A DNA stretch of 29,237 nucleotides from an uncultured Actinomycetes bacterium (lineage in GTDB: Bacteria > Actinomycetota > Acidimicrobiia > Acidimicrobiales > Microtrichaceae): NCBI GenBank assembly GCA_903941145.1, contig CAJANQ010000537.1:1-29237 (forward strand), in the 5' to 3' direction. How positions within the stretch are numbered: position 1 is the stretch's first letter; the number at the start of each line of letters is the position of its first letter. The notes under the pieces were generated by a model, which saw only the letters and a program-made list of their open reading frames with translations, did no database searches and had not been told where the DNA came from. A program made the translations under genes and the position numbers. This document shows, piece after piece, positions 326 through 10,739 of this stretch.

Positions 326-1705
326 TTAGGCGGGGGCGTCGGTGCTGCCGGGGCCAGCGAGGTGCTCCCAGGCGTCCGGGAGCAGCTCGACGACGTCGGA
401 GGCCACCAGGCCGCGGGCCGGTCCGAGCAGCGCTGCGGTGCCGTGCAGGTGGGCGCCGGACGCCGCGGCGCGGAGCGGCGGAGCACCCAGCGCGAGCAGC
501 GCTGCGACCGTGCCCGAGAGCACGTCGCCAGTGCCGGCGGTCGCCAGCCGCTGGTCACCTGCGTGGACGAGCAGTGCTGCGCCGTCAGGGTCGGCGACCA
601 CCGTGGTCGGGCCCTTGAGCAGCACGGTGCACCCGGTGCGGACGGCAAGGTCACGGACTGCAGCCAGGCGGTCGTCGCCAGGCGGCGCGCCGGCAACGGT
701 CTCGAACTCGGCGTCGTGCGGGGTGAGCACCGTCGGTGCCGACCGGGCGGAGAGCACCGCGGCAGGGTCGTCGCCCAGCAGACGGAGGCCGTCGCCGTCG
801 AGGACGAGCGGCAGGTCCGCCCGGGCAACGAGCGTCTGAACGAGTGTCGCCGCCTCCGTGGTGCGGCCCAGGCCAGGTCCCACGACCAGCGCGGCGAAGC
901 GCGACAGCGCGTCCAGCACGGCCAAGTGGTCGTCCACCGCGGCGCGGTGCTCGACGACCTCGACCGGGACACAGGGTGTGGGTGCTTCGGCGCCGGGCAC
1001 GGTCAGACGGACGTAGCCCGCACCGGCACGGAACGCGGCGGCAGCTGCAAGTGCGGCTGCGCCCGTCATGCCGGGCGAGCCGGCCACGACGGCGACGGCG
1101 TGACGCCACTTGTGGGCGTCCGACGCACGGTCCGGCACCCACGCGACGACGTCGGCGTCCTCGACCAGGTGCGCCGTCGCGCCCGCGACGTCCAGGCCGA
1201 TGTCGGCCAGCTGGACCACGCCGGAGTACGCCGGACCCTCACCGAGCAGCAGCCCCGGCTTGAGGGCGGCGAAGGTGACCGTGGCCAGGGCGTGGGTCGG
1301 CTGGCCGCTCACCCTGCCGGTCAGTCCCGAGACCCCGGACGGGACGTCGACGGCCAGCACGGGCGCACCGTCGGGGTCGGGGAACCGGTACTCGCCCCGG
1401 AACCCGGTGCCGAAGGCGGCGTCCACGACCAGGTCGCACGGCGGCAGCACCGCCGGGGCGTCGGCCGCGTCGACCACCGTGCACCGCACGCCGCGACGCT
1501 CGAGCAGCTGCGCCGCGACCCGGCCGTCGTTGCCGTTGTTGCCCGGACCGACCACCACCACGACCCGGCGGCCATAGGTGCCGCCCAGCAAGTCCACGAC
1601 GGCGCGGGCGACCGCGGCCGCAGCCCGGAGCACGAGCTCCTCGACCGGCTCGGGCGCCGTTCGGTCGACCTCGGCCATCTCCGCCGGGGTGAGCACCGGA
1701 ATCAT
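326..1705 (-). CDS. nnr: Bifunctional NAD(P)H-hydrate epimerase/dehydratase (YjeF/Nnr)
   Basis: 459 aa. YjeF_N motifs GPGNNGNDG, VVDAAFGTG, AVDVPSG and TVTF. Carbohydrate-kinase-like C-half motifs PGMTGAAAL, GPGLG, LVLDGDG, LTPHDAEF, LLKG and LATAGTGDVLSG. Usual position upstream of alr. Confidence 0.95.
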   Translation of the reverse strand: MIPVLTPAEMAEVDRTAPEPVEELVLRAAAAVARAVVDLLGGTYGRRVVVVVGPGNNGNDGRVAAQLLERRGVRCTVVDAADAPAVLPPCDLVVDAAFGTGFRGEYRFPDPDGAPVLAVDVPSGVSGLTGRVSGQPTHALATVTFAALKPGLLLGEGPAYSGVVQLADIGLDVAGATAHLVEDADVVAWVPDRASDAHKWRHAVAVVAGSPGMTGAAALAAAAAFRAGAGYVRLTVPGAEAPTPCVPVEVVEHRAAVDDHLAVLDALSRFAALVVGPGLGRTTEAATLVQTLVARADLPLVLDGDGLRLLGDDPAAVLSARSAPTVLTPHDAEFETVAGAPPGDDRLAAVRDLAVRTGCTVLLKGPTTVVADPDGAALLVHAGDQRLATAGTGDVLSGTVAALLALGAPPLRAAASGAHLHGTAALLGPARGLVASDVVELLPDAWEHLAGPGSTDAPA

Positions 1706-1769
1706 GGGCGCAGTCTCGCAGAGGTGGCCGACAGCTGCCCCTGGGGGACCGAAACAGAGCGTTCACACT

Positions 1770-1792
1770 CCTGTCGCTGGAGCGACCACAGG
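1770..1792. promoter_or_regulatory. Imperfect dyad between the divergent nnr and antiporter starts
   Basis: CCTGTCGCTGGAGCGACCACAGG: outer CCTGT/ACAGG arms and inner GTCGCT/AGCGAC arms, in the 107-nt divergent intergenic region. Confidence 0.3.
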
Positions 1793-1812
1793 GACCCGTA
1801 CGGTCCCCGCCG

Positions 1813-4476
1813 ATGGAGACTCACGGGCTGGTCGACATCCTGATCATCATCCTGGCGGCCAAGCTCGGGGGCGAGCTGGCCGAGCGGTTGCGCGTCCCGT
1901 CGGTCATCGGCGAGATCGTGGCCGGCCTGGTCGTCGGACCCTCCCTCCTCGGCATCGTCGAGCCGAACGAGCTGCTCACGGTGCTCGCAGAGGTCGGCGT
2001 CATCATGCTGCTGCTGCAGGTCGGCCTGGAGATGGACCTGGGCGAGATGCGCCGGGTCGGGGCCTCGGCCATGTCGGTGGCGATCGCCGGGATCGTCGTG
2101 CCCTTCGCGTCCGGGTACGGCGTGGCGCTCGCGCTCGGCCAACCTTCCCGCACCGCGATGTTCATCGGCGCGGCACTGACCGCGACGTCGGTCGGCATCA
2201 CCGCCCGGGCCTTCGGCGACCTGCGGATGCTGGCGTCCAAAGAGTCCCGGATCGTGCTCGGCGCTGCGGTGGCCGACGACGTCCTCGGTCTGGTGATCCT
2301 GACGGTCGTCGTCAGGATCGTGGAGAAGGGGACCTTCAGCCTGTCGGGCGCCCTCACCGTCCTGGGCACGGCGCTCGTGTTCCTGGTCGGGACCACGGCG
2401 GTCAGCCTCAAGGTCGTCCCACCGCTGTTCCGGTGGATCCGCCGCAGCTCGATCGGTGCCGGGACCTTGCTGGTGGCTGCCCTGGTGCTCACCCTGGCGC
2501 TCGCCGAGCTCGCCATCGCGGCCCAGCTGGCACCGATCATCGGGGCATTCGTCGCCGGGCTGGCGCTCGGTACCACGAAGGAGGCGGAGCGGATCGAGCG
2601 CGACCTCACACCACTCAGCCACTTCTTCATCCCCATCTTCTTCGCCGTCGTCGGCATCCAGATCGACGTGGCGGCGCTCCTGCGCCCGGCGGTCCTGGGC
2701 CTGGCCGCCGCGCTGATCGTGGTGGCGTTCGTCGGCAAGCTCGTTGCCGGCCTGTTCGCCGGCCGCGGCGGCGTCGACCGGCTGATGGTGGGCATCGGGA
2801 TGATCCCCCGCGGCGAGGTCGGGCTGATCTTCGCCTCGATCGGCCTGGCCAACGGGGTGCTCGGCAAGGACCTGTACGGGGCGCTGCTGCTGGTCGTGCT
2901 GGTGACCACCGTGGCGACACCGGGCCTGATCCGGGCCCGACGGACCGTCACACTCAAGCGGCAGCGGGCTGCCGTCGGCAACGAGGCGCCCACGGACGGC
3001 TGGCTAGGTCAGGTCGACGGCCTCGTGGTGCTCCACGGTCGGCCACCGGCCGAACAGACGCTCGCCGTGGCGATCGAGGCGGCCACGCTGGCCGGGAGCA
3101 CGCCTCCGTCGGACCATCTCGTCGACTGGCTGAGCGAGGAGGCCGACGGGGACCTGAGCTGGAACGACGACGCCAGGGCCGCCTTCGACGAGCTGCTCCG
3201 GAGCGGCCACCGTCGTTCGTGGCGGCTGCTCGACGCCACCGGGATGCTCGCCGGTGCCCTTCCCGACCTGGCCGACGAGCTCGCCCACCGCCGACGCGAC
3301 ACCTCGCTGCTCGACCCGGCCCACCTGCTGCGTTGGCCGACGGTCGAGGAGCTCGCGGCGCTCGAGCACGGTGACGACCGCGAGGCGACCACCGCCTTCG
3401 GCCTGCTCTCGACCGCCTCGATCCTCCGTCTGGCTGCGCTGGCGGTGGACCTGTCCGGGGAGCACGACGACGTCACGATCACTGCGGGCGACCTGGGCAA
3501 GGACCTCGGTCTGGACGCCGCGGATGTGGCCGAGCTCGTGGCGACCGCCTCCGACGCCGGTCTGCTCCGGGCCACCGCGTCACACCTTGCGGAGGTGCCG
3601 CTCGGTCCGGGTGCCGACCTGGTCGCCCACGTCGGGTCCCTCGAACGTGCCCGACGCCTCTACCTGCTCGACCTGGCACTCGGGGACCTGGCCCCGCTCC
3701 ACAGGGAGACGTTCGACCACGTCACCGGACTGCTCGTCGACGAGCTGGCCCGCCGCGGCGTCAACGACACCGCCGGTGCCGACGAGATCGACCGGCGCCG
3801 CCGGCAGGCGCTCGAGCTCTCGGACGACCCGCGGGTCTCGGCACGGATCGGCAAGGCTCCGAGGTCGCTCGTCGCCTCGCTCGAACCGGCGCAGCTCGTG
3901 ACCGACGTGGCGCTGCTGGCCGAGGGTGTCCCGGCCCCCGGTATGTACCGCGTCGGGGTGCAGCCCGACGGCGACCGCTGGCGGGTGGCCGTCGCAGGTG
4001 GCGACCAGCCCGGGCTGCTGGCGCGTGTTGCCGCTGCGCTCGGTGACGCCGGGCTCCCGGTGGAGCAGGCCACCGTCGCCAGCTTCAGCGACCGGGCCGT
4101 GCTCGACGTCTTCTGGGTCACCGGCACCTCGGCCCCGGACCCCGACCTGCTCGCCGAAGGCATCCTGAACGCGTTCCGGTCGCCGCAGCCCACCGACAAC
4201 GTCCAGGGCATCGGGGTCACCCTCGACAACGACGCCTCCCCGTGGTTCACCGTGTGCACCGTGACCGGGGAGGACCGGGACGGTCTCCTGGCCGACCTGG
4301 CGGCTGCCATCTCGGCGGACGGCGTCGTCGTCCACGGCGCCCGCCTGACGACCAAGGACGGCACGTTCGTGGACCGGTTCGACCTGTCCGACAGGAGGGG
4401 GCGCAAGCTCGACGCTGCCGCCCAGCACAAGGTGGCGGCCCGGCTGGGCGTCACGACCGCCGCCGACGCCTCCTAG
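1813..4476 (+). CDS. CPA2/NapA-type cation:proton antiporter fused to a GlnD-like C-terminal region (degenerate HD plus two ACT domains)
   Basis: 887 aa. About aa 1-380 is a multi-pass hydrophobic domain with ALTATSVGIT, AAVADDVLGL (DD motif), VGKLVAG and GMIPRGEVGLI. The C-terminal part has ACT-like GDQPGLLARVAAAL...VLDVFWV and DNDASPWFTVCTVTGEDRDGLLADLAAAI...FVDRFDL. Confidence 0.85.
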   Translation: METHGLVDILIIILAAKLGGELAERLRVPSVIGEIVAGLVVGPSLLGIVEPNELLTVLAEVGVIMLLLQVGLEMDLGEMRRVGASAMSVAIAGIVVPFASGYGVALALGQPSRTAMFIGAALTATSVGITARAFGDLRMLASKESRIVLGAAVADDVLGLVILTVVVRIVEKGTFSLSGALTVLGTALVFLVGTTAVSLKVVPPLFRWIRRSSIGAGTLLVAALVLTLALAELAIAAQLAPIIGAFVAGLALGTTKEAERIERDLTPLSHFFIPIFFAVVGIQIDVAALLRPAVLGLAAALIVVAFVGKLVAGLFAGRGGVDRLMVGIGMIPRGEVGLIFASIGLANGVLGKDLYGALLLVVLVTTVATPGLIRARRTVTLKRQRAAVGNEAPTDGWLGQVDGLVVLHGRPPAEQTLAVAIEAATLAGSTPPSDHLVDWLSEEADGDLSWNDDARAAFDELLRSGHRRSWRLLDATGMLAGALPDLADELAHRRRDTSLLDPAHLLRWPTVEELAALEHGDDREATTAFGLLSTASILRLAALAVDLSGEHDDVTITAGDLGKDLGLDAADVAELVATASDAGLLRATASHLAEVPLGPGADLVAHVGSLERARRLYLLDLALGDLAPLHRETFDHVTGLLVDELARRGVNDTAGADEIDRRRRQALELSDDPRVSARIGKAPRSLVASLEPAQLVTDVALLAEGVPAPGMYRVGVQPDGDRWRVAVAGGDQPGLLARVAAALGDAGLPVEQATVASFSDRAVLDVFWVTGTSAPDPDLLAEGILNAFRSPQPTDNVQGIGVTLDNDASPWFTVCTVTGEDRDGLLADLAAAISADGVVVHGARLTTKDGTFVDRFDLSDRRGRKLDAAAQHKVAARLGVTTAADAS

Positions 4477-4482
4477 TTGCGG

Positions 4483-4875
4483 TCAGCTGCGCTCGGCGAC
4501 CACGACGGCGCTCGCCATCGCGTCGGTGTGGCTGAGCGAGATGTGCCAGTGCGACACCCCTAGCTCCTCGGCGCGCAGCTGCGCCCGGCCCGAGACGATC
4601 AGCGTCGGGTGGCCGTCGTCGGCCCGCACGACGCCGATCTCGTCGAACCGGACCGAGGTGAAGCCCACGCCCAGCGCCTTCATCGCGGCCTCCTTGGCCG
4701 CGAACCGCGCGGCGAGGACCGGCACCGGGTCCCGGTGGCGCAACGCGTAGTCGCGCTCAGAGCCGGTGAACAGCCGAGCCGCCAGACCGGGCTGGCGGTC
4801 GAGCGCGGCGCGCAGGCGCTCCACATCGACGAGGTCCGTGCCCACGCCGACGACGCTGGTAGGTGCCAGCGTCAT
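4483..4875 (-). CDS. acpS: Holo-[acyl-carrier-protein] synthase
   Basis: 130 aa with [27 protein letters not shown] and ISLSH motifs. Its start overlaps the glmS stop (ATGA). Confidence 0.95.
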
Positions 4876-7800
4876 GAACGCCAGCGGTCTGCGAGGTCGA
4901 GGATCGGCACGGTGAGCAGGTCGGCCACCGACTGCGACGCCAGCAGGTCGTCGCGGAAGACGTCCTCGGTCTCGGTCACGGCGTCCTTCAGGGCCTGGTA
5001 GCGCCGTCGGTAGCCCTGCAGCACGGCACGGGCCGTGGCGGCCGGGAGGTGCTCCGGCAGGTTCACGTGCAGCAGGACCAGACCGGTGGTCACACCGTCC
5101 TTGGCCTCGGGCACGATCACGACCAGGCGACCGTCGCTGCGGCCAACCGCCACCATGAGCTCCTGCTCACGGGCGACGAGCGCCTTGGTGCCGCGCAGAC
5201 GGGCGTCACGATCGATCCGCGACGACATGCCGGCGGCCACGCCGCCACGGTCGAGCACGACCAGCGTGGCCCGCTCGAGGTCCTCGCCGTGCTCCACCCC
5301 GTACCGGGTGTGGCCGACGACCTCGACCACGGCCGGGTCGAGCTCGCCGAGCGTGCGGAGCGTTGAGTAGGCGAGCCGGTCGCGGGGCGCGCCGGCGGCC
5401 AGCACGGCCGCCACGAACGGCACCTGCAACAGCGACTCGTCGCTGCGGCTGATGCCGACCGTGACCGTCTTGGCCTGGTGCTTGATGGCGTCGACCGGAC
5501 GGGTCAGCTCCTCGATCGCCGCAGTGAGGGCTGCGGTCGTGTCCTCGAGGACCACGCCGGGCGTGCCGACCTTGCCGAACTCGATCTGGTAGGCGTCGAG
5601 CGGGCTGATGCCCACGACGTAGCGGAGCTGACCGGCGAGCCGCACGGCGGTCTGCGCCTCGAGGTGGCCGTTCATCTCGCCCGAGCGCAGTCCGTCGAAG
5701 TAGGTGCCGGCGTGCTCGGTGAGCACGGGACGCAGTTCGGCGAGCAGCCGACCGGGGTCGATCTCGGAGGCGTCTGCCCCGACGCTGGCCGCGGCCTGGT
5801 CCAGGGCGGCACGGGCCTCGCGCAGGGGGCGGGCCAGGGCGTCGATGGCGAGTGCCGCCTCGTAGCCGAACAGGTGCCCGGCCATGGTGGCCAGGATGAA
5901 GGCCAGGCGCGGGTCGGTCGACGGGACCGTGATCACCGACATCGCCGCTGGAAAGGCCCGGTCGCCCTCGGACGCGATGACGACCGGCGCCGCCTTGTGG
6001 GCCCGGAAGATCGCGACCTCCTTGGCCACGTCGTCGGCGGTCGAGCCGACCAGGCCGGCGGCACACACCAGGATGAACGGCTCGGAGGACAGGTCGATGT
6101 GCTTCTTGTCCTCGGTGGCGTCACAGGCGATCGACTTGTAGCAGAGCTCGCTGAGCTTGATCCGCAGCTCGCGGGCCGTGATCTGGTTCACGCCGTTGCC
6201 CACGATCGCCCAGTAGCGGCGCGAGGGGCACAGGGTCCGGGCGGCGTCGGCCACGGCGTCGCGGGTGAGGAGCGTCTCCTCCATCCGGGACGGGAGGTCG
6301 CGCAGCGCCCGCAGAAGCTCCTGCTGGGAGGCGTCCGCGCTCGAGCGGCCGCGGGGCACCTCGTCGGCCACGGCCTGGGCCAGCAGCAGGCCGGCCGCCA
6401 CCTGGGCGTAGAAGGCCTTGGTCGACGCGACGCTCATCTCCACGTCGCGGCCGTCGGACGTGTAGAGCACACCGTCGGCCTTGTCGGTCAGGTCGCTGTT
6501 GCGGCGGTTGACGATGGCCACGCAGAGCGCCCCACGGCCGCGCACTAGGTCGACGGTCCGGTTGGTGTCGGTGGTCGTACCGGACTGGCTGATGGCGATG
6601 ATGAGCGTGTCCGACATGTCGGCACGCAGGCGGAAGCCCGAGAGTTCGGTGGCGGGGAGCGCCTCGACCCGGACGTCGGTCTCGGCAAGGAGCTCGGACA
6701 GGTGGTGGGCCAGGCTCTGGCCGGCAATGGCCGCGGTGCCCTGGCCGATGACCTGCACCCGGTCGATCCGGCCGTCGCGCAGGCGCTCGCGCACCGACTG
6801 CGGCAGCGTGCTGTCCGGCAGCTCGACGTGCATCGTGCCGTCGGACTCGAGCAGCTTGCCGCGGAGCGTCTTGCGGAACGACCCCGGAGAGTCCGTGATC
6901 TCTTTGAGCAGGTAGTGCGGGTAGTCGCCACGGTCGATGTCGCGCGTGGTGATCTGGGCGACGTCGAGGTCGCCACCGGTCACGGGCAGCTTGGTGCCGT
7001 CGTAGGACCAGCGGCCGATGCCCTCGACCGAGCCGGCCTTCGTGGTGTCGAGCACCACGATCTGGCCGCGGCTACCGGTGGGGTTGTCGGGATCGGACGG
7101 GGTCTCGCCGTCCATCCGCAGGAAGTCGGCGGTCTCCTCGACCACCCCGTAGGGCTCCGAGGCGATGATGAACGCGTCCTCGGCCACGCCCACGTAGAGC
7201 GCCTGGCCGCTGCCGCGCAGGGCCAGCATGAGCTGCTCCGGGTCCGCGGCGCTCGCTGCAGCGATGGCCACCGAGCCCTCGAGGCGGACCACGGTCTCGC
7301 GGAACGCCTCGTGCACCGGCAGGCCCTCGGCGAGCTGCCGGGACAGCAGGGTCGGGATGACCTTGGCGTCGGTGGTGATCTCGGTGGCGATCTTGAGCCC
7401 GTCCGACGCGATCAGGTCGGCGTAGTTGTCGACGTCGCCGTTGAGCACCGCGGTAGCGAGCGGCACGCCCGAGCCGTCGAGCTCCTCGGAGGACTGCGGG
7501 TGGGCGTTGGGCTCGGAGATGATGCCGATCGACGCCCAGCGGGTGTGGCCCAGGACCAGACCCTCGACGTCGTCGGAACGGAGCGCCAGGTGCAGGAGCT
7601 CGTCGTCGGCCATCGCGGCGCGCAGCGCGGCGGTGTTGTCGCCGAGCTCGCCGATCTCGGCAGAGGTCTTGTAGACGAGCAGCAGCACGCCGTCGACCAG
7701 CCGGACCGAGCCAGAGGTGAACGAGCGGTGGTTCCGCTCGGCGAGCGCCCGGCGCAGGATCGGGTCGTCGGCAGAGATCCCATGACCGGTGAGCTGGACC

Positions 7801-8324
7801 TCGATGCCGGCGGAGTCGCGTCCACGGACCTCGAGCCGGTCGACCGCCGAGAGCGCCTGGTGGAGGCTGAAGAGCACGGCGAGGCCAGAGGGGCCTGCTC
7901 CGGACGGGGTCATCGCCGCGACCTCGTTGGCGGCACGGACGCGGTCGCGGCCGATGGCCCAGACGGCGTCCTTCACACGGATGAGCGAGGCGTTGACGGC
8001 CTCGAGGTCCGGGCCGCTGAGCCCGGAGTCGCCGGCGTCCAGGGCGGCCTCGACCTGCTCCGCGGTGGTCGCCACCTCGGCGACCTGCGCGGCGACGCGG
8101 CCGACCGCAGCAGGGTCCGCAGTGAGCGTGAGGATGCCAGGGATGCCCCGGAGGTCGCCGTCGACGCCCTCGAGCAGGTCGGCGGCAGCGGCCAGCTGCT
8201 CGGCCCAGGCCGACGCGACGTCGGCGAGCAGCCCGTCGGCGACCACGAGCCGCGACAGGACCTCGTCGACGTGGACCGGCTCACGCGTCGTCCGACGACG
8301 CACTACGGCGATGATGCCGCACAT
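4872..8324 (-). CDS. glmS: Atypically large glutamine--fructose-6-phosphate transaminase (GlmS-like, 1150 aa)
   Basis: Start trimmed to ATG 8324 giving MCGII (Ntn Cys1). Also [55 protein letters not shown] and [10 protein letters not shown]. Sits directly downstream of glmM. Confidence 0.88.
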
Positions 8325-8490
8325 AGAACTCACCCTCTGTTGTTGGGAAACGGCCCTCAGGCCGTGGCTGCATCTGCCGGGACCCTCACCGCCCCCGGGA
8401 TGCAAAAAGCCTACCGGGGAGGTTCCAGAACCCGACCGGCTGCCACAGGGTCCACCGGTGGGTGGATCTCCCTGCTCCTGATCATGTGGC
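8325..8490 (-). ncRNA. Candidate structured cis-regulatory leader of glmS (four hairpins)
   Basis: Minus-strand stems: CAGGG-AGA-TCCACC/GGTGGA-CCCTG (8446-8474); GCCGG..GGTT/AACC..CCGGT (8413-8440) followed by AGGCTTTTT; TGCATC-CCGGG/CCCGG-CA-GATGCA (8369-8404); ACGGCC/GGCCGT (8350-8365). Found by manual pairing only. Confidence 0.45.
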
Positions 8491-9822
8491 TCAGGAGGCT
8501 GCGAGGGCCTCGACGGCCGCTGCGAGCCGTTCGGCGACCTGGGCCGCCTGGTCGTCGGTGGCCGCCTCGGCCATGACGCGCACGACGGGCTCGGTGCCCG
8601 ACGGACGCAGCAGCACCCGGCCGGAGTCGCCCAGTTCGGCCGACACTGCGGCGATCTCGGCAGCGAGTCGCTCGGCGACGTCGGGCATCGGCGTACCGAC
8701 CCGCACGTTGACGAGCACCTGCGGAAGGCGGGTCATGGCGCCGGCCGCGAGCTCGGCGAGCGGCCGGCCCGACCGGAGCAGCAGGTCCGACAGCACGACG
8801 GCGCTCAGGAGCCCGTCGCCGGTCGTGGCCAGGTCGCCGAAGATGATGTGGCCCGACTGCTCACCGCCCAGCGAGAACCCGCCCGCGGTGATGGCCTCGA
8901 GCACGTACCGGTCGCCCACGGCCGTGTCGACCACGGTGATCCCCTCGGCCGCCATGGCCTGGCGGAACCCGAGGTTGGTCATGACCGTGACGACGACCGT
9001 GTCGTGGGCCAGGCGGCCACGGCTGCGCAGGTCGAGCGCGCACAGGGCGATGATCTGGTCGCCGTCGACGACGGTGCCGGTGTGGTCCACCGCCACCAGC
9101 CGGTCGGCGTCGCCGTCGAACGCGATGCCCAGGTCGGCGCCGTGCGCCACCACCGCCGCAGCAAGCGGCTCGGGGTGCGTCGAGCCGCAGCCCTCGTTGA
9201 TGTTGCGGCCGTCAGGGTGGTCCGACAGGACCGTGACCTCGGCGCCGAGCGCACGCAGCACCTCGGGTCCGACCACGGAGTTCGAGCCGTTGGCGCAGTC
9301 GACGACCATCTTGAGGCCCTCGAGGCGACGGCCCTCCGTCGACGCCACGACGTGCGCCGCGTACTCGTCGAGGGCGGTGTGGTCGGCGTGGACGCCGCCG
9401 ACCGAGGACGGGCCCGGGTGCAGACCCGGCGAGAGCAGCTCCTCGATCTGCGCCTCCACCGCCGACTGCTCGGCGTCCGACAACTTGCGACCGCCAGGGC
9501 CGAACAGCTTGATGCCGTTGTCGGCGAAGGGGTTGTGCGATGCCGAGATCATGACGCCCGGCACTCCGCGTGCGGACGACGCCGCAGCCACGGCAGGGGT
9601 CGGGACGACCTCGAGCAGCACGGCCTCGGCACCCTCGGCGGTCACGCCGGCCGCGGTGGCGGCGGCGAGCATCTGGCCGGACTCACGGGTGTCGCGGCCG
9701 ATGACGACCTGCTGGGCCGGAAACACGCGGACCGTAGCACGGCCGATGGCGACCGCCACCTCGGCGGTGAGCGCCTCGTTGGCCGGACCACGCACACCGT
9801 CGGTGCCGAAACGGACGGACAT
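8491..9822 (-). CDS. glmM: Phosphoglucosamine mutase
   Basis: 443 aa with FGTDGVRG, ISASHNP (phosphoserine), FDGDADR (metal loop), GGEQSGH and LLRPSGTEP. Confidence 0.97.
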   Translation of the reverse strand: MSVRFGTDGVRGPANEALTAEVAVAIGRATVRVFPAQQVVIGRDTRESGQMLAAATAAGVTAEGAEAVLLEVVPTPAVAAASSARGVPGVMISASHNPFADNGIKLFGPGGRKLSDAEQSAVEAQIEELLSPGLHPGPSSVGGVHADHTALDEYAAHVVASTEGRRLEGLKMVVDCANGSNSVVGPEVLRALGAEVTVLSDHPDGRNINEGCGSTHPEPLAAAVVAHGADLGIAFDGDADRLVAVDHTGTVVDGDQIIALCALDLRSRGRLAHDTVVVTVMTNLGFRQAMAAEGITVVDTAVGDRYVLEAITAGGFSLGGEQSGHIIFGDLATTGDGLLSAVVLSDLLLRSGRPLAELAAGAMTRLPQVLVNVRVGTPMPDVAERLAAEIAAVSAELGDSGRVLLRPSGTEPVVRVMAEAATDDQAAQVAERLAAAVEALAAS

Positions 9823-9858
9823 TGCGCCCCCTGAGTCCTAGGTCTGAGTACTGGACGG

Positions 9859-9880
9859 ACCGGGGGCAGCACGCCCCGGC
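9859..9880 (-). terminator. GC-rich hairpin just after the rpsI stop (possible terminator without a U-tract)
   Basis: GCCGGGGC-GTGCT-GCCCCCGGT on the minus strand, 4 nt past the stop. Confidence 0.35.
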
Positions 9881-9884
9881 AACG

Positions 9885-10277
9885 TCAGCGCTTGGAGTAC
9901 TGCGGAGCCTTACGGGCCTTCTTGAGGCCGTACTTCTTGGACTCCTTCTCACGCGCATCGCGGGAGAGGAACCCGGCCTTCTTGAGCGAGGGCCGAAGCT
10001 CGGGGTCCAGGGCGATCAGGCCGCGGGCGATGCCCAGGCGCATGGCGCCAGCCTGGCCGCTCACGCCGCCGCCGTGGAGGGTGGCGTCGATGTCGTAGCC
10101 CTCGCCGGTCTCGGTGAGCCGCAGGGGCTCGGTGAGGATCATGCGATGGGTCGCGTTCGGGAAGTAGTCCTCGAGGGGCCGCTTGTTGATCGTGATGGCG
10201 CCAGAGCCTTCACGGATGCGGACTCGGGCGACGGCGCGCTTGCGGCGGCCAGTGCTTTGGACGAGCGGGAGAGGCAT
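9885..10277 (-). CDS. rpsI: 30S ribosomal protein S9
   Basis: [21 protein letters not shown] and the C-terminal [17 protein letters not shown]. Confidence 0.98.
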
Positions 10278-10289
10278 TCTCTAACTCCG

Positions 10290-10739
10290 TTACACGCGGG
10301 CTCGGGCCGCGTCGAGGTTCAGCGGCTTCGGGTTCTGGGCATCGTGCGGGTGCGTCGGGCCGGCGTAGACCTTGAGCTTCCGCAGCATCTGGTTGCCCAG
10401 ACGGTTCTTCGGCAGCATGCCCTTGACGGTGCGGCGCACCGCGTCGGCAGGCTTCTTGTCGAGCATCTCGGCGTAGGTCGCCGAGCGCAGACCACCCGGG
10501 TACCCGGTGTGGCGGTAGACCATCTTGGCGTCGGCCTTGCCGGAGCTCAGGACGACCTTGTCGGCGTTCACGATGATCACGTGGTCACCGGTGTCGAGGT
10601 GCGGCGTGAACGTCGGCTTGTGCTTGCCGCGCAGGACGCGGGCCACCTCGGTCGCCATACGGCCAAGGGTCAGGCCCTCGGCGTCGACGACGTACCAGTC
10701 ACGTTCGATCTCGTTCGCGCTCGGGGTGTAGGTGCGCAC
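10290..10739 (-). CDS. rplM: 50S ribosomal protein L13
   Basis: Start trimmed to GTG 10739 (MRTYTP...). Motifs WYVVDA, LRGKHKPTFTPHLDTGD, MLPKNRLG and KLKVYAGP. Confidence 0.97.
   Translation of the reverse strand: MRTYTPSANEIERDWYVVDAEGLTLGRMATEVARVLRGKHKPTFTPHLDTGDHVIIVNADKVVLSSGKADAKMVYRHTGYPGGLRSATYAEMLDKKPADAVRRTVKGMLPKNRLGNQMLRKLKVYAGPTHPHDAQNPKPLNLDAARARV

Follow-up and report, generated by a model that had tools for sequence, protein, structure and literature searches.

What does the back half of GlnD do at the end of an ion transporter? The question is raised by a stretch of DNA of 29,237 nucleotides (nt), here called the window, which is contig CAJANQ010000537.1 of assembly GCA_903941145.1, from an uncultured lake bacterium of the family Microtrichaceae (class Acidimicrobiia). 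At 1813-4476 on the + strand the window carries one open frame of 887 amino acids (aa), which starts with ATG and runs without interruption, as an earlier note made from the sequence alone had reported, and the encoded protein is, with near certainty, an antiporter of the CPA2 family fused to the back half of GlnD. The reading favoured here, at a little better than an even chance, is that of a NapA-type antiporter with a pseudo-GlnD tail through which the exchange would be gated by nitrogen status. The gene is divided as follows.

1813-4476, + strand: whole gene, 887 aa, NapA-type antiporter with pseudo-GlnD tail (open reading frame (ORF) call, homologues, contigs bridging the junction)
1813-2970, + strand: CPA2 (NapA-type) transporter domain, aa 1-386 (Pfam PF00999, NapA alignment, invariant residues, AlphaFold2 (AF2) model)
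2986-3285, + strand: pre-HD region, aa 392-491, corresponding to about GlnD 291-397, a beta-hairpin and helices with invariant R468, W470 and R471 (hhalign, AF2, conservation)
3286-3699, + strand: degenerate HD-like helical domain, aa 492-629, corresponding to about GlnD 398-525 (hhalign, GlnD invariants, residue counts in 74 members)
3700-3942, + strand: helical linker from the HD-like domain to the first ACT domain, aa 630-710 (AF2, end of the alignment with relative L043)
3943-4182, + strand: ACT domain 1, aa 711-790, with D731, G734, L735 and F767 (Pfam ACT, AF2, ACT pair 34% identical to that of the genome's own GlnD, conservation)
4210-4446, + strand: ACT domain 2, aa 800-878, after a DNDASPW strand, with D821, G824, L826 and F856 (Pfam ACT/ACT_4/ACT_6, TIGR01693 769-845, AF2, conservation)

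The transporter half

The N-terminal part, in which the ATS, DD, K and PRGE signatures of CPA2 transporters had been recognised beforehand, clearly belongs to this family. The Pfam Na_H_Exchanger profile (PF00999) matches aa 13-370 with E 3.4e-64 (217.5 bits against a cut-off of 26.2), as the earlier note had expected of a profile search, and aa 5-373 are collinear with residues 6-371 of NapA from Thermus thermophilus (4bwz, 5bz2, 5bz3; E 1.5e-66), while the match to KefC is much weaker (E 1.7e-16). The NCBIfam CPA2 model TIGR00932 misses its cut-off (179.3 bits vs 238.3), though all 275 model positions align, and the CPA2 assignment therefore rests on the Pfam match and the NapA alignment. 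In the AF2 model the transporter part is all-helical to aa 386. The residues of the transport site are present as T125/S126/V127, D155/D156, K309 and P332-R333-G334-E335; of these, T125, S126, D155, D156, K309, R333 and E335 are shared by all 74 family members compared and V127 by 73, the remaining one having V127I.

An aspartate pair together with a lysine in transmembrane helix 10 is the mark of electrogenic exchangers of the NhaA/NapA kind. According to the structure of KefC, K+/H+ exchangers have QD and a Thr where NapA has Val, and Na+/H+ exchangers have ND or DD (PMC11150392). Since the motif here is DD and not QD, and Val and not Thr follows the ATS position, the transporter, of the NapA type, is probably an electrogenic CPA2 Na+(Li+)/H+ antiporter. 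The likeness to NapA extends over an end-to-end alignment, the ATSVG, DD and PRGE motifs, the lysine of helix 10 and the length of the domain; in contrast, NapA ends at 386 aa with no regulatory domain, whereas the protein of the window runs 500 residues further. No Pfam match to RCK, TrkA_N, TrkA_C, CBS or Usp is found in the 887-aa protein. A cytoplasmic loop, E259-R260-x-x-R263 (ERIERDL; nt 2587-2601), is invariant in the family and differs in NapA, and is a candidate docking site for the tail.

The GlnD-derived tail

The 500 residues that follow are homologous to the back half of GlnD from aa 392 to 885, and the resemblance to the helical and HD regions of GlnD that had been suspected from the letters thus reflects true homology. 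NF002895, the actinobacterial GlnD model, aligns without a break to aa 404-878 through its positions 318-773 of 782, and hhalign of 17 tails against 12 GlnDs of Acidimicrobiia aligns 433 columns with 99.9% probability and E 2e-31, tail positions 8-501 (aa 392-885) corresponding to GlnD 291-762. The AF2 model of the tail has a predicted local distance difference test value (pLDDT) of 86.5 and a predicted template modelling score (pTM) of 0.79; a Foldseek search with this model against Swiss-Prot models, which the earlier note had proposed as a check, gives a top 30 consisting entirely of GlnD (E about 1e-20, residues 2-494 covered). Against the PDB, the Foldseek matches are to an A-adding enzyme, through its helical body (3wfr, E 8e-4), and to various proteins with ACT domains, with no solved GlnD among them, and phmmer of the tail against PDB sequences gives no match. 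Both of the ACT-like repeats that had been read from the sequence are found by Pfam (aa 731-780 and 814-858) and AF2, near the coordinates first given for them, and in BLASTP the ACT pair, with the DN(D/E)xSP strand included, is 34% identical over 164 aa to the genome's own GlnD.

The tail thus resembles GlnD 291-762 in its pre-HD helices, HD-fold bundle, two ACT domains and DN(D/E)xSP strand. It differs in being anchored in the membrane by the fusion, in forming a clade of its own and in its lost catalytic parts. No Pfam match to the nucleotidyltransferase (NTase) domain, PF08335 (GlnD_UR_UTase) or PF01966 (HD) appears at E up to 1. All through the family other residues stand in place of H402, H409, H437 and H479 of GlnD, for the most part L, R, L/V/I and small residues, and D520 lies in a deletion; only D438 is retained, as D546 here and as D or E across the family, and the HD dyad accordingly reads V545-D546. 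With the NTase domain absent and the HD metal ligands lost, the tail is by its residues a dead enzyme that cannot modify PII, which agrees with the non-catalytic tail lacking an NTase domain and reading VD at the dyad that the earlier note had predicted. An identity as GlnD itself was rejected: two ACT domains are there, but the NTase part, the HD metal ligands and the equivalog scores fail (TIGR01693 60.3 bits vs a cut-off of 519.4; NF002895 50.7-52.9 vs 631).

Though catalytically dead, the tail is under selection, as judged from its residues. It is conserved over its full length down to 35% tail identity; among 74 members R468, W470 and R471 are invariant, R493, H606 and R678 are near-invariant, and 68-72 retain D, G, L and F at their positions in each of the two ACT domains.

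Integrity of the fusion

Could the fusion be an artefact, either an assembly chimera or a functionless, decaying pseudogene? The source genome is a metagenome-assembled genome (MAG) fragmented into 601 contigs, in which the fusion gene is single-copy, and a few relatives have in-frame TGA stops. However, three studies supply lake-water runs with Logan contigs that cover 2608-4700, 2741-4700 and 2742-3031, and these all span the junction between the CPA2 part and the tail (about nt 2970) with no insertions or deletions seen, and 57 other genomes carry the fusion in one open frame of at least 850 aa. Neither a stop nor a chimera, the two faults for which the junction was to be checked, is therefore present, and with the transport residues invariant and the tail conserved across its whole length the artefact is refuted. 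A short low-depth contig of one run, X3, omits 72 nt (24 codons, in frame) at 2385-2458 within the transporter domain; its support is weak, with 30 nt on one side, and it could reflect strain variation or a quirk of assembly. Two long + strand ORFs that overlap the 5′ end of the gene, 2-1843 and 1578-3374, have no family matches and are taken as spurious.

Distribution and gene neighbourhood

Homologues of the same architecture, which the earlier note had suggested looking for, exist at 43-88% identity over the full length, and the rarity that it had implied does not hold. In a profile search of 1.84 billion representatives, with clusters at 50% identity, the tail family comprises 477 clusters at E 1e-30 or better. 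Among the best 150 representatives the tail occurs only with CPA2, in proteins that are about 880-950 aa long with the tail beginning at about residue 390, or shorter; all nine of the shorter or oddly placed representatives that were scanned start within or right after the Na_H_Exchanger profile and are N-truncated fragments. Of 80 other genome loci, 77 have a CPA2 coding sequence immediately before the tail and on its strand, the 57 single-frame cases included, and the 80 loci (given L numbers below) come nearly all from MAGs labelled Acidimicrobiia or unclassified Actinomycetota.

The fusion probably extends beyond Acidimicrobiia. Of 300 further genomes sampled from the class, 48 show a tail match at E <=1e-40 and about 36 at <=1e-90; in the sample of the phylum, strong matches (E 1e-94 to 1e-124) also occur in families outside the class, the weaker ones being ordinary GlnDs, and as the cut-off of 1e-40 also catches true GlnDs of other classes the phylum tally over-counts. 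The genome tallies include the unpublished genomes G275, G383 and G611, and the claims made here are independent of these. Tail matches of E 1e-104 to 1e-124, in ORFs of about 900-1000 aa, were recorded outside the class in genomes G308, G386, G403, G416, G429, G443, G450 and G455.

Of the 80 loci, 42 have a divergent ammonium transporter gene (amt), which is almost always the immediate neighbour of the fusion. In 33 of the 80 a small receiver-less winged-helix protein of the OmpR type is encoded directly upstream of it (e.g. L011:4234-4794); GlnR-type triple repeats often precede this small gene, and no homologue of the regulator is found in the genome of the window at E 1e-3 or better. The placement seen in the window, between nnr and acpS-glmS, is limited to the window and to L009, L015, L043, L055 and L082. 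In a maximum-likelihood tree of the tails rooted with GlnD, obtained by a short search and with a long outgroup branch, all tails form one clade (support 100) apart from the GlnD of Acidimicrobiia. The nnr/acpS group likewise is one clade (support 100), sister to an amt-linked member (support 95), and amt linkage is found in all three basal lineages. The simplest reading of this tree is a single secondary relocation, by which a freshwater clade would have moved from an amt neighbourhood into the gap between nnr and acpS-glmS.

The tight linkage of the family to one divergent type of Amt also invites another explanation, that the protein exchanges NH4+ (or K+/NH4+) for H+ and is opened by its tail at high glutamine, as a PII-independent overflow for the adjacent Amt. 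The Amt cluster has no glnK and a canonical amtB-glnK-glnD set is kept elsewhere, CPA2 antiporters for NH4+/H+ are described (amhT; cited second-hand in PMC9040632), and the physiological logic would be cleaner than that of Na+/H+ exchange. On the other hand, the DD and Val residues are those of Na+/H+ exchangers and not the QD and Thr of K+-type CPA2 proteins, among characterised proteins the Na+/H+ antiporter NapA is the closest relative, by far ahead of KefC, and no Amt is adjacent in the window; selectivity, moreover, is not reliably readable from sequence. Such an ammonium valve is considered unlikely.

Upstream region and nitrogen genes of the genome

The fusion gene is preceded by a divergent gap of 107 nt (1706-1812), in which two elements stand out.

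1751-1766, + strand: candidate GlnR-type box GAAAC-n6-TTCAC (5+6+5, both half-sites having A at position 4), 47-62 nt before the ATG
1799-1804, + strand: -10-like hexamer TACGGT, 8 nt before the ATG with no Shine-Dalgarno sequence between them (conserved in the aligned upstream regions)

Both appear as conserved islands in an alignment with five relatives. The spacing of the box is identical in L009, L082 and L043 (GTAAC-n6-TTCAC in L043) while its flanks diverge, and the identical 16-mer also lies upstream of the distant family member L058. The pattern TAC[CG][GT]T occurs 7-9 nt before the start codon in six of six aligned upstream regions. The actinobacterial -10 consensus is TANNNT, and the agreement of TACGGT with it at 8 nt from the ATG, together with the missing Shine-Dalgarno sequence, suggests that the fusion gene has a leaderless transcript.

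The box also fits the published forms of GlnR boxes, gTnAc-n6-GaAAc and GAAAC-n6-GTATC, in which the A at position 4 is essential (PMC10704036). Similar arrays precede nitrogen genes of the same genome: GTAAC-n6-TCCCG-n6-GAAAC-n6-GAAAC before its amtB, GAAAT-n6-GAAAC before a second amt and, on the opposite strand, TTCAC-n6-GTAAC before glnA. The pattern KWHAC-n6-KWHAC, fixed before the other loci were examined, has 37 matches in the 19.5 kb upstream of the first gene of the cluster in 55 loci vs 28 in the other 598 kb, an enrichment of about 40-fold (composition-preserving shuffles give 1.43 +/- 1.18), which is to be read as a footprint and not as a probability, the 55 loci being related and not independent. 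The arrays upstream of the clusters often read TTCAC-n6-G(T/A)AAC-n6-G(T/A)AAC. A strict GAAAC-based pattern has 15 matches in the 2.75-Mb genome, most of them in coding-looking sequence; two of these candidates, on contigs C149 and C180, were discarded, with nothing nitrogen-related there.

The genome keeps its own canonical set, split between contig C4, with amtB, glnK and the start of glnD, and contig C101, with the remainder of glnD. The separate intact GlnD for which the earlier note had advised a search is therefore present; it has 765 aa, with PF08335, HD and ACT domains, and is encoded downstream of amtB-glnK. A second ammonium transporter, on a separate contig, is 61-70% identical to the fusion-linked Amts and about 31% to canonical AmtB. 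Its gene (C239:3832-5517; L094) stands behind acyl-CoA-synthetase-like and acyltransferase_3 genes, and the contig ends right after it. The sequence CCTCCTTAGGTTC lies upstream of both amt genes (L008:690-705, L094:3846-3861), downstream of their GlnR-type repeats, and may be a shared -10 or promoter element of the two.

The GlnR-type box, together with the clustering of most relatives with a dedicated ammonium transporter, gives indirect support to membership of the fusion gene in the nitrogen (GlnR) regulon. In the freshwater clade, the relocated gene left the ammonium transporter and kept the box. Some form of nitrogen-linked control appears fairly probable on these grounds.

The same evidence bears on the idea that the tail is a drifted regulatory or dimerising module for some other amino acid, a nucleotide, or the pH or osmotic state, and that the linkage with amt reflects shared ion homeostasis. 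ACT domains bind many different ligands, the branch between the tails and GlnD is long (0.74 + 0.74 changes per column), an anionic ligand could find its site in the invariant arginine-rich helical domain, and the clade of the window did leave the amt neighbourhood. Against this stand the GlnR-type boxes, conserved upstream even in the relocated clade, the amt linkage of all three basal lineages and the retention of the residues common to glutamine-responsive ACT domains. A sensor unrelated to nitrogen has accordingly been given a low probability.

Proposed mechanism

In the preferred reading, the gating of a NapA-type antiporter by nitrogen status, the last transmembrane helix would run straight into the cytoplasmic module of 500 residues taken from the back half of GlnD, and this pseudo-GlnD tail would serve as an allosteric sensor or clamp on the cytoplasmic face of the transporter. 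A metabolite reporting nitrogen status, most likely glutamine bound at the ACT pair, would change the grip of the tail, by either release or engagement. The tail might act in the way of the RCK domains of KefC, inhibiting by docking between the core and dimer domains, and the purpose could be a cycling of protons and sodium, for pH and charge balance, that keeps step with the uptake and assimilation of ammonium. In a study of an algal amylase activated by glutamine, which defined no binding site, D, L and F positions are listed as common to glutamine-responsive ACT domains of the GlnD type (PMC11190351), and these are near-invariant in both ACT domains here. Glutamine as the ligand of the tail is nonetheless rated as somewhat less likely than not.

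Several points weigh against this mechanism. The conserved ACT residues do not identify the ligand, because the glutamine site of GlnD ACT domains is without structural definition. The full-length AF2 model has a pTM of 0.51, and the packing of the tail on the transporter is not confidently predicted. A 2H+/Na+ antiporter working in the usual direction would add protons to a cytoplasm already acidified by ammonium assimilation, which leaves the physiological logic unsettled. In the window no amt or other nitrogen gene is co-transcribed with the fusion, and the box alone is not significant there (3 matches vs 1.6 expected); the relatedness of the loci behind the enrichment of boxes counts on the same side.

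Natural relatives that lack both ACT domains are a further difficulty. L043:4846-6801 encodes a version of 651 aa, 59% identical over 632 aa to the protein of the window, which aligns only up to window aa 645 and ends just after the HD-like bundle, immediately before acpS. L055:4726-6783 and the protein cluster P0021 (651 aa, 11 members) are likewise without ACT domains, and the natural ACT-less versions end near aa 647. Both L043 and L055 share the nnr/acpS context, and L043 keeps the upstream box. Since such versions share clade and context with the gene of the window, the ACT pair can, going by these sequences, be dispensed with for some function; the helical pseudo-HD part therefore has a role of its own and may even be the main player.

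A role of this kind is at the centre of a further explanation, in which the dead HD region recognises PII (GlnK or its UMP- or AMP-modified form) or binds Amt, control being exerted by protein contact. PII is the only known partner protein of GlnD, PII proteins are known to regulate membrane transporters such as AmtB (PMC4285133), glnK is present in the genome, and the helical domain, with the family-specific invariant residues R468, W470, R471 and R493, persists in the ACT-less variants. Yet the active-site residues with which the HD domain of GlnD processes PII-UMP are not kept, and in none of the loci examined is the fusion linked to a PII gene; a complex predicted for tail aa 385-887 and three GlnK chains of the same genome, with a score of 0.02 against a mark of 0.34, gives no verdict either way. 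Control by protein docking is regarded as quite improbable.

The elements may also be combined into a PII-independent nitrogen control, where the ACT pair of the dead GlnD module would sense glutamine and the arginine-rich HD-like bundle might respond to a second ligand, of anionic nature, or to a protein. The module would switch a cation/proton exchanger, which would relieve a dedicated Amt as a safety valve or offset its effects on pH and charge, perhaps through export of NH4+ itself; the ACT-less variants from lakes would then be uncoupled forms. This fuller scheme is speculative and rated as having only a small chance of being correct.

Comparison with known systems

Whichever signal may be read, the principle of a CPA2 transporter with a fused regulatory domain is known, and what is new, going by the literature searched, is a putative gate derived from a pseudo-enzyme copy of GlnD. 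The design is shared with the glutathione-gated K+/H+ exchangers KefC and KefB (8bxg), which also combine a CPA2 transporter with a fused cytoplasmic ligand-binding control domain; inhibition in KefC comes from the RCK domain, which docks between core and dimer domains (PMC11150392). The domain in KefC is, in contrast, a Rossmann-type RCK and not an HD-like bundle with ACT domains, and KefC has QD, is selective for K+ and is electroneutral, the similarity to it being that of the E value given above. Assignment as a KefC-type gated CPA2 protein was rejected for want of an RCK/KTN match and on account of the DD motif, the analogy being one of design only.

The use of a GlnD-like ACT domain as a detachable sensor has parallels in plant ACR11 and in the Chlamydomonas alpha-amylase AMA2, which share the D, L and F positions, and AMA2 is activated by glutamine through its ACT domain (PMC11190351). 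These proteins have taken over ACT domains only, whereas here the whole back half of GlnD is present, the dead HD bundle included, and the output is a membrane transporter. Alkaliphilic Bacillus (B. pseudofirmus) has in AmhT/AmhM a CPA2 K+/NH4+:H+ antiporter with a separate RCK partner. It likewise ties a CPA2 transporter to ammonium homeostasis (PMC9040632). It differs in that the regulator is a separate RCK protein, and the ion-site motif of the protein in the window is of the Na+ type.

In the literature searched, no description of a CPA2-ACT or CPA2-GlnD fusion was found, in accordance with the earlier note, which knew of no example; the gates of CPA2 transporters known so far are of the RCK/KTN type, and a gate from a pseudo-enzyme GlnD is undescribed there. 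New from the present locus are the relocated context, the footprint of GlnR boxes and the ACT-less variants. If the tail does sense glutamine, it would provide a direct post-translational link from nitrogen status to ion and pH homeostasis that bypasses PII, in a class of abundant, mostly uncultured actinobacteria of soils and lakes. The fusion also offers a compact system, a soluble domain plus a transporter, for the question of how ACT domains of the GlnD type recognise glutamine, which is open for GlnD itself, and the ACT-less variants and the relocated, GlnR-boxed copy are ready-made comparators.

Genes flanking the fusion

All neighbours of the fusion gene are on the - strand, and it is thus a lone + strand insertion inside a conserved row of housekeeping genes. 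On its upstream side lie alr (2-316) and nnr (326-1705), the latter a gene for NAD(P)H-hydrate repair, and downstream acpS (4483-4875), glmS and glmM. The ORF of glmS, at 4872-8405 on the - strand, is about 1150-1180 aa long vs the usual length of about 610, with the GATase_6 domain at aa 282-417 and the SIS domain at aa 548-676. At the same place L043 has an ORF of 1151 aa (7244-10699, - strand), and the extra length seems to be conserved.

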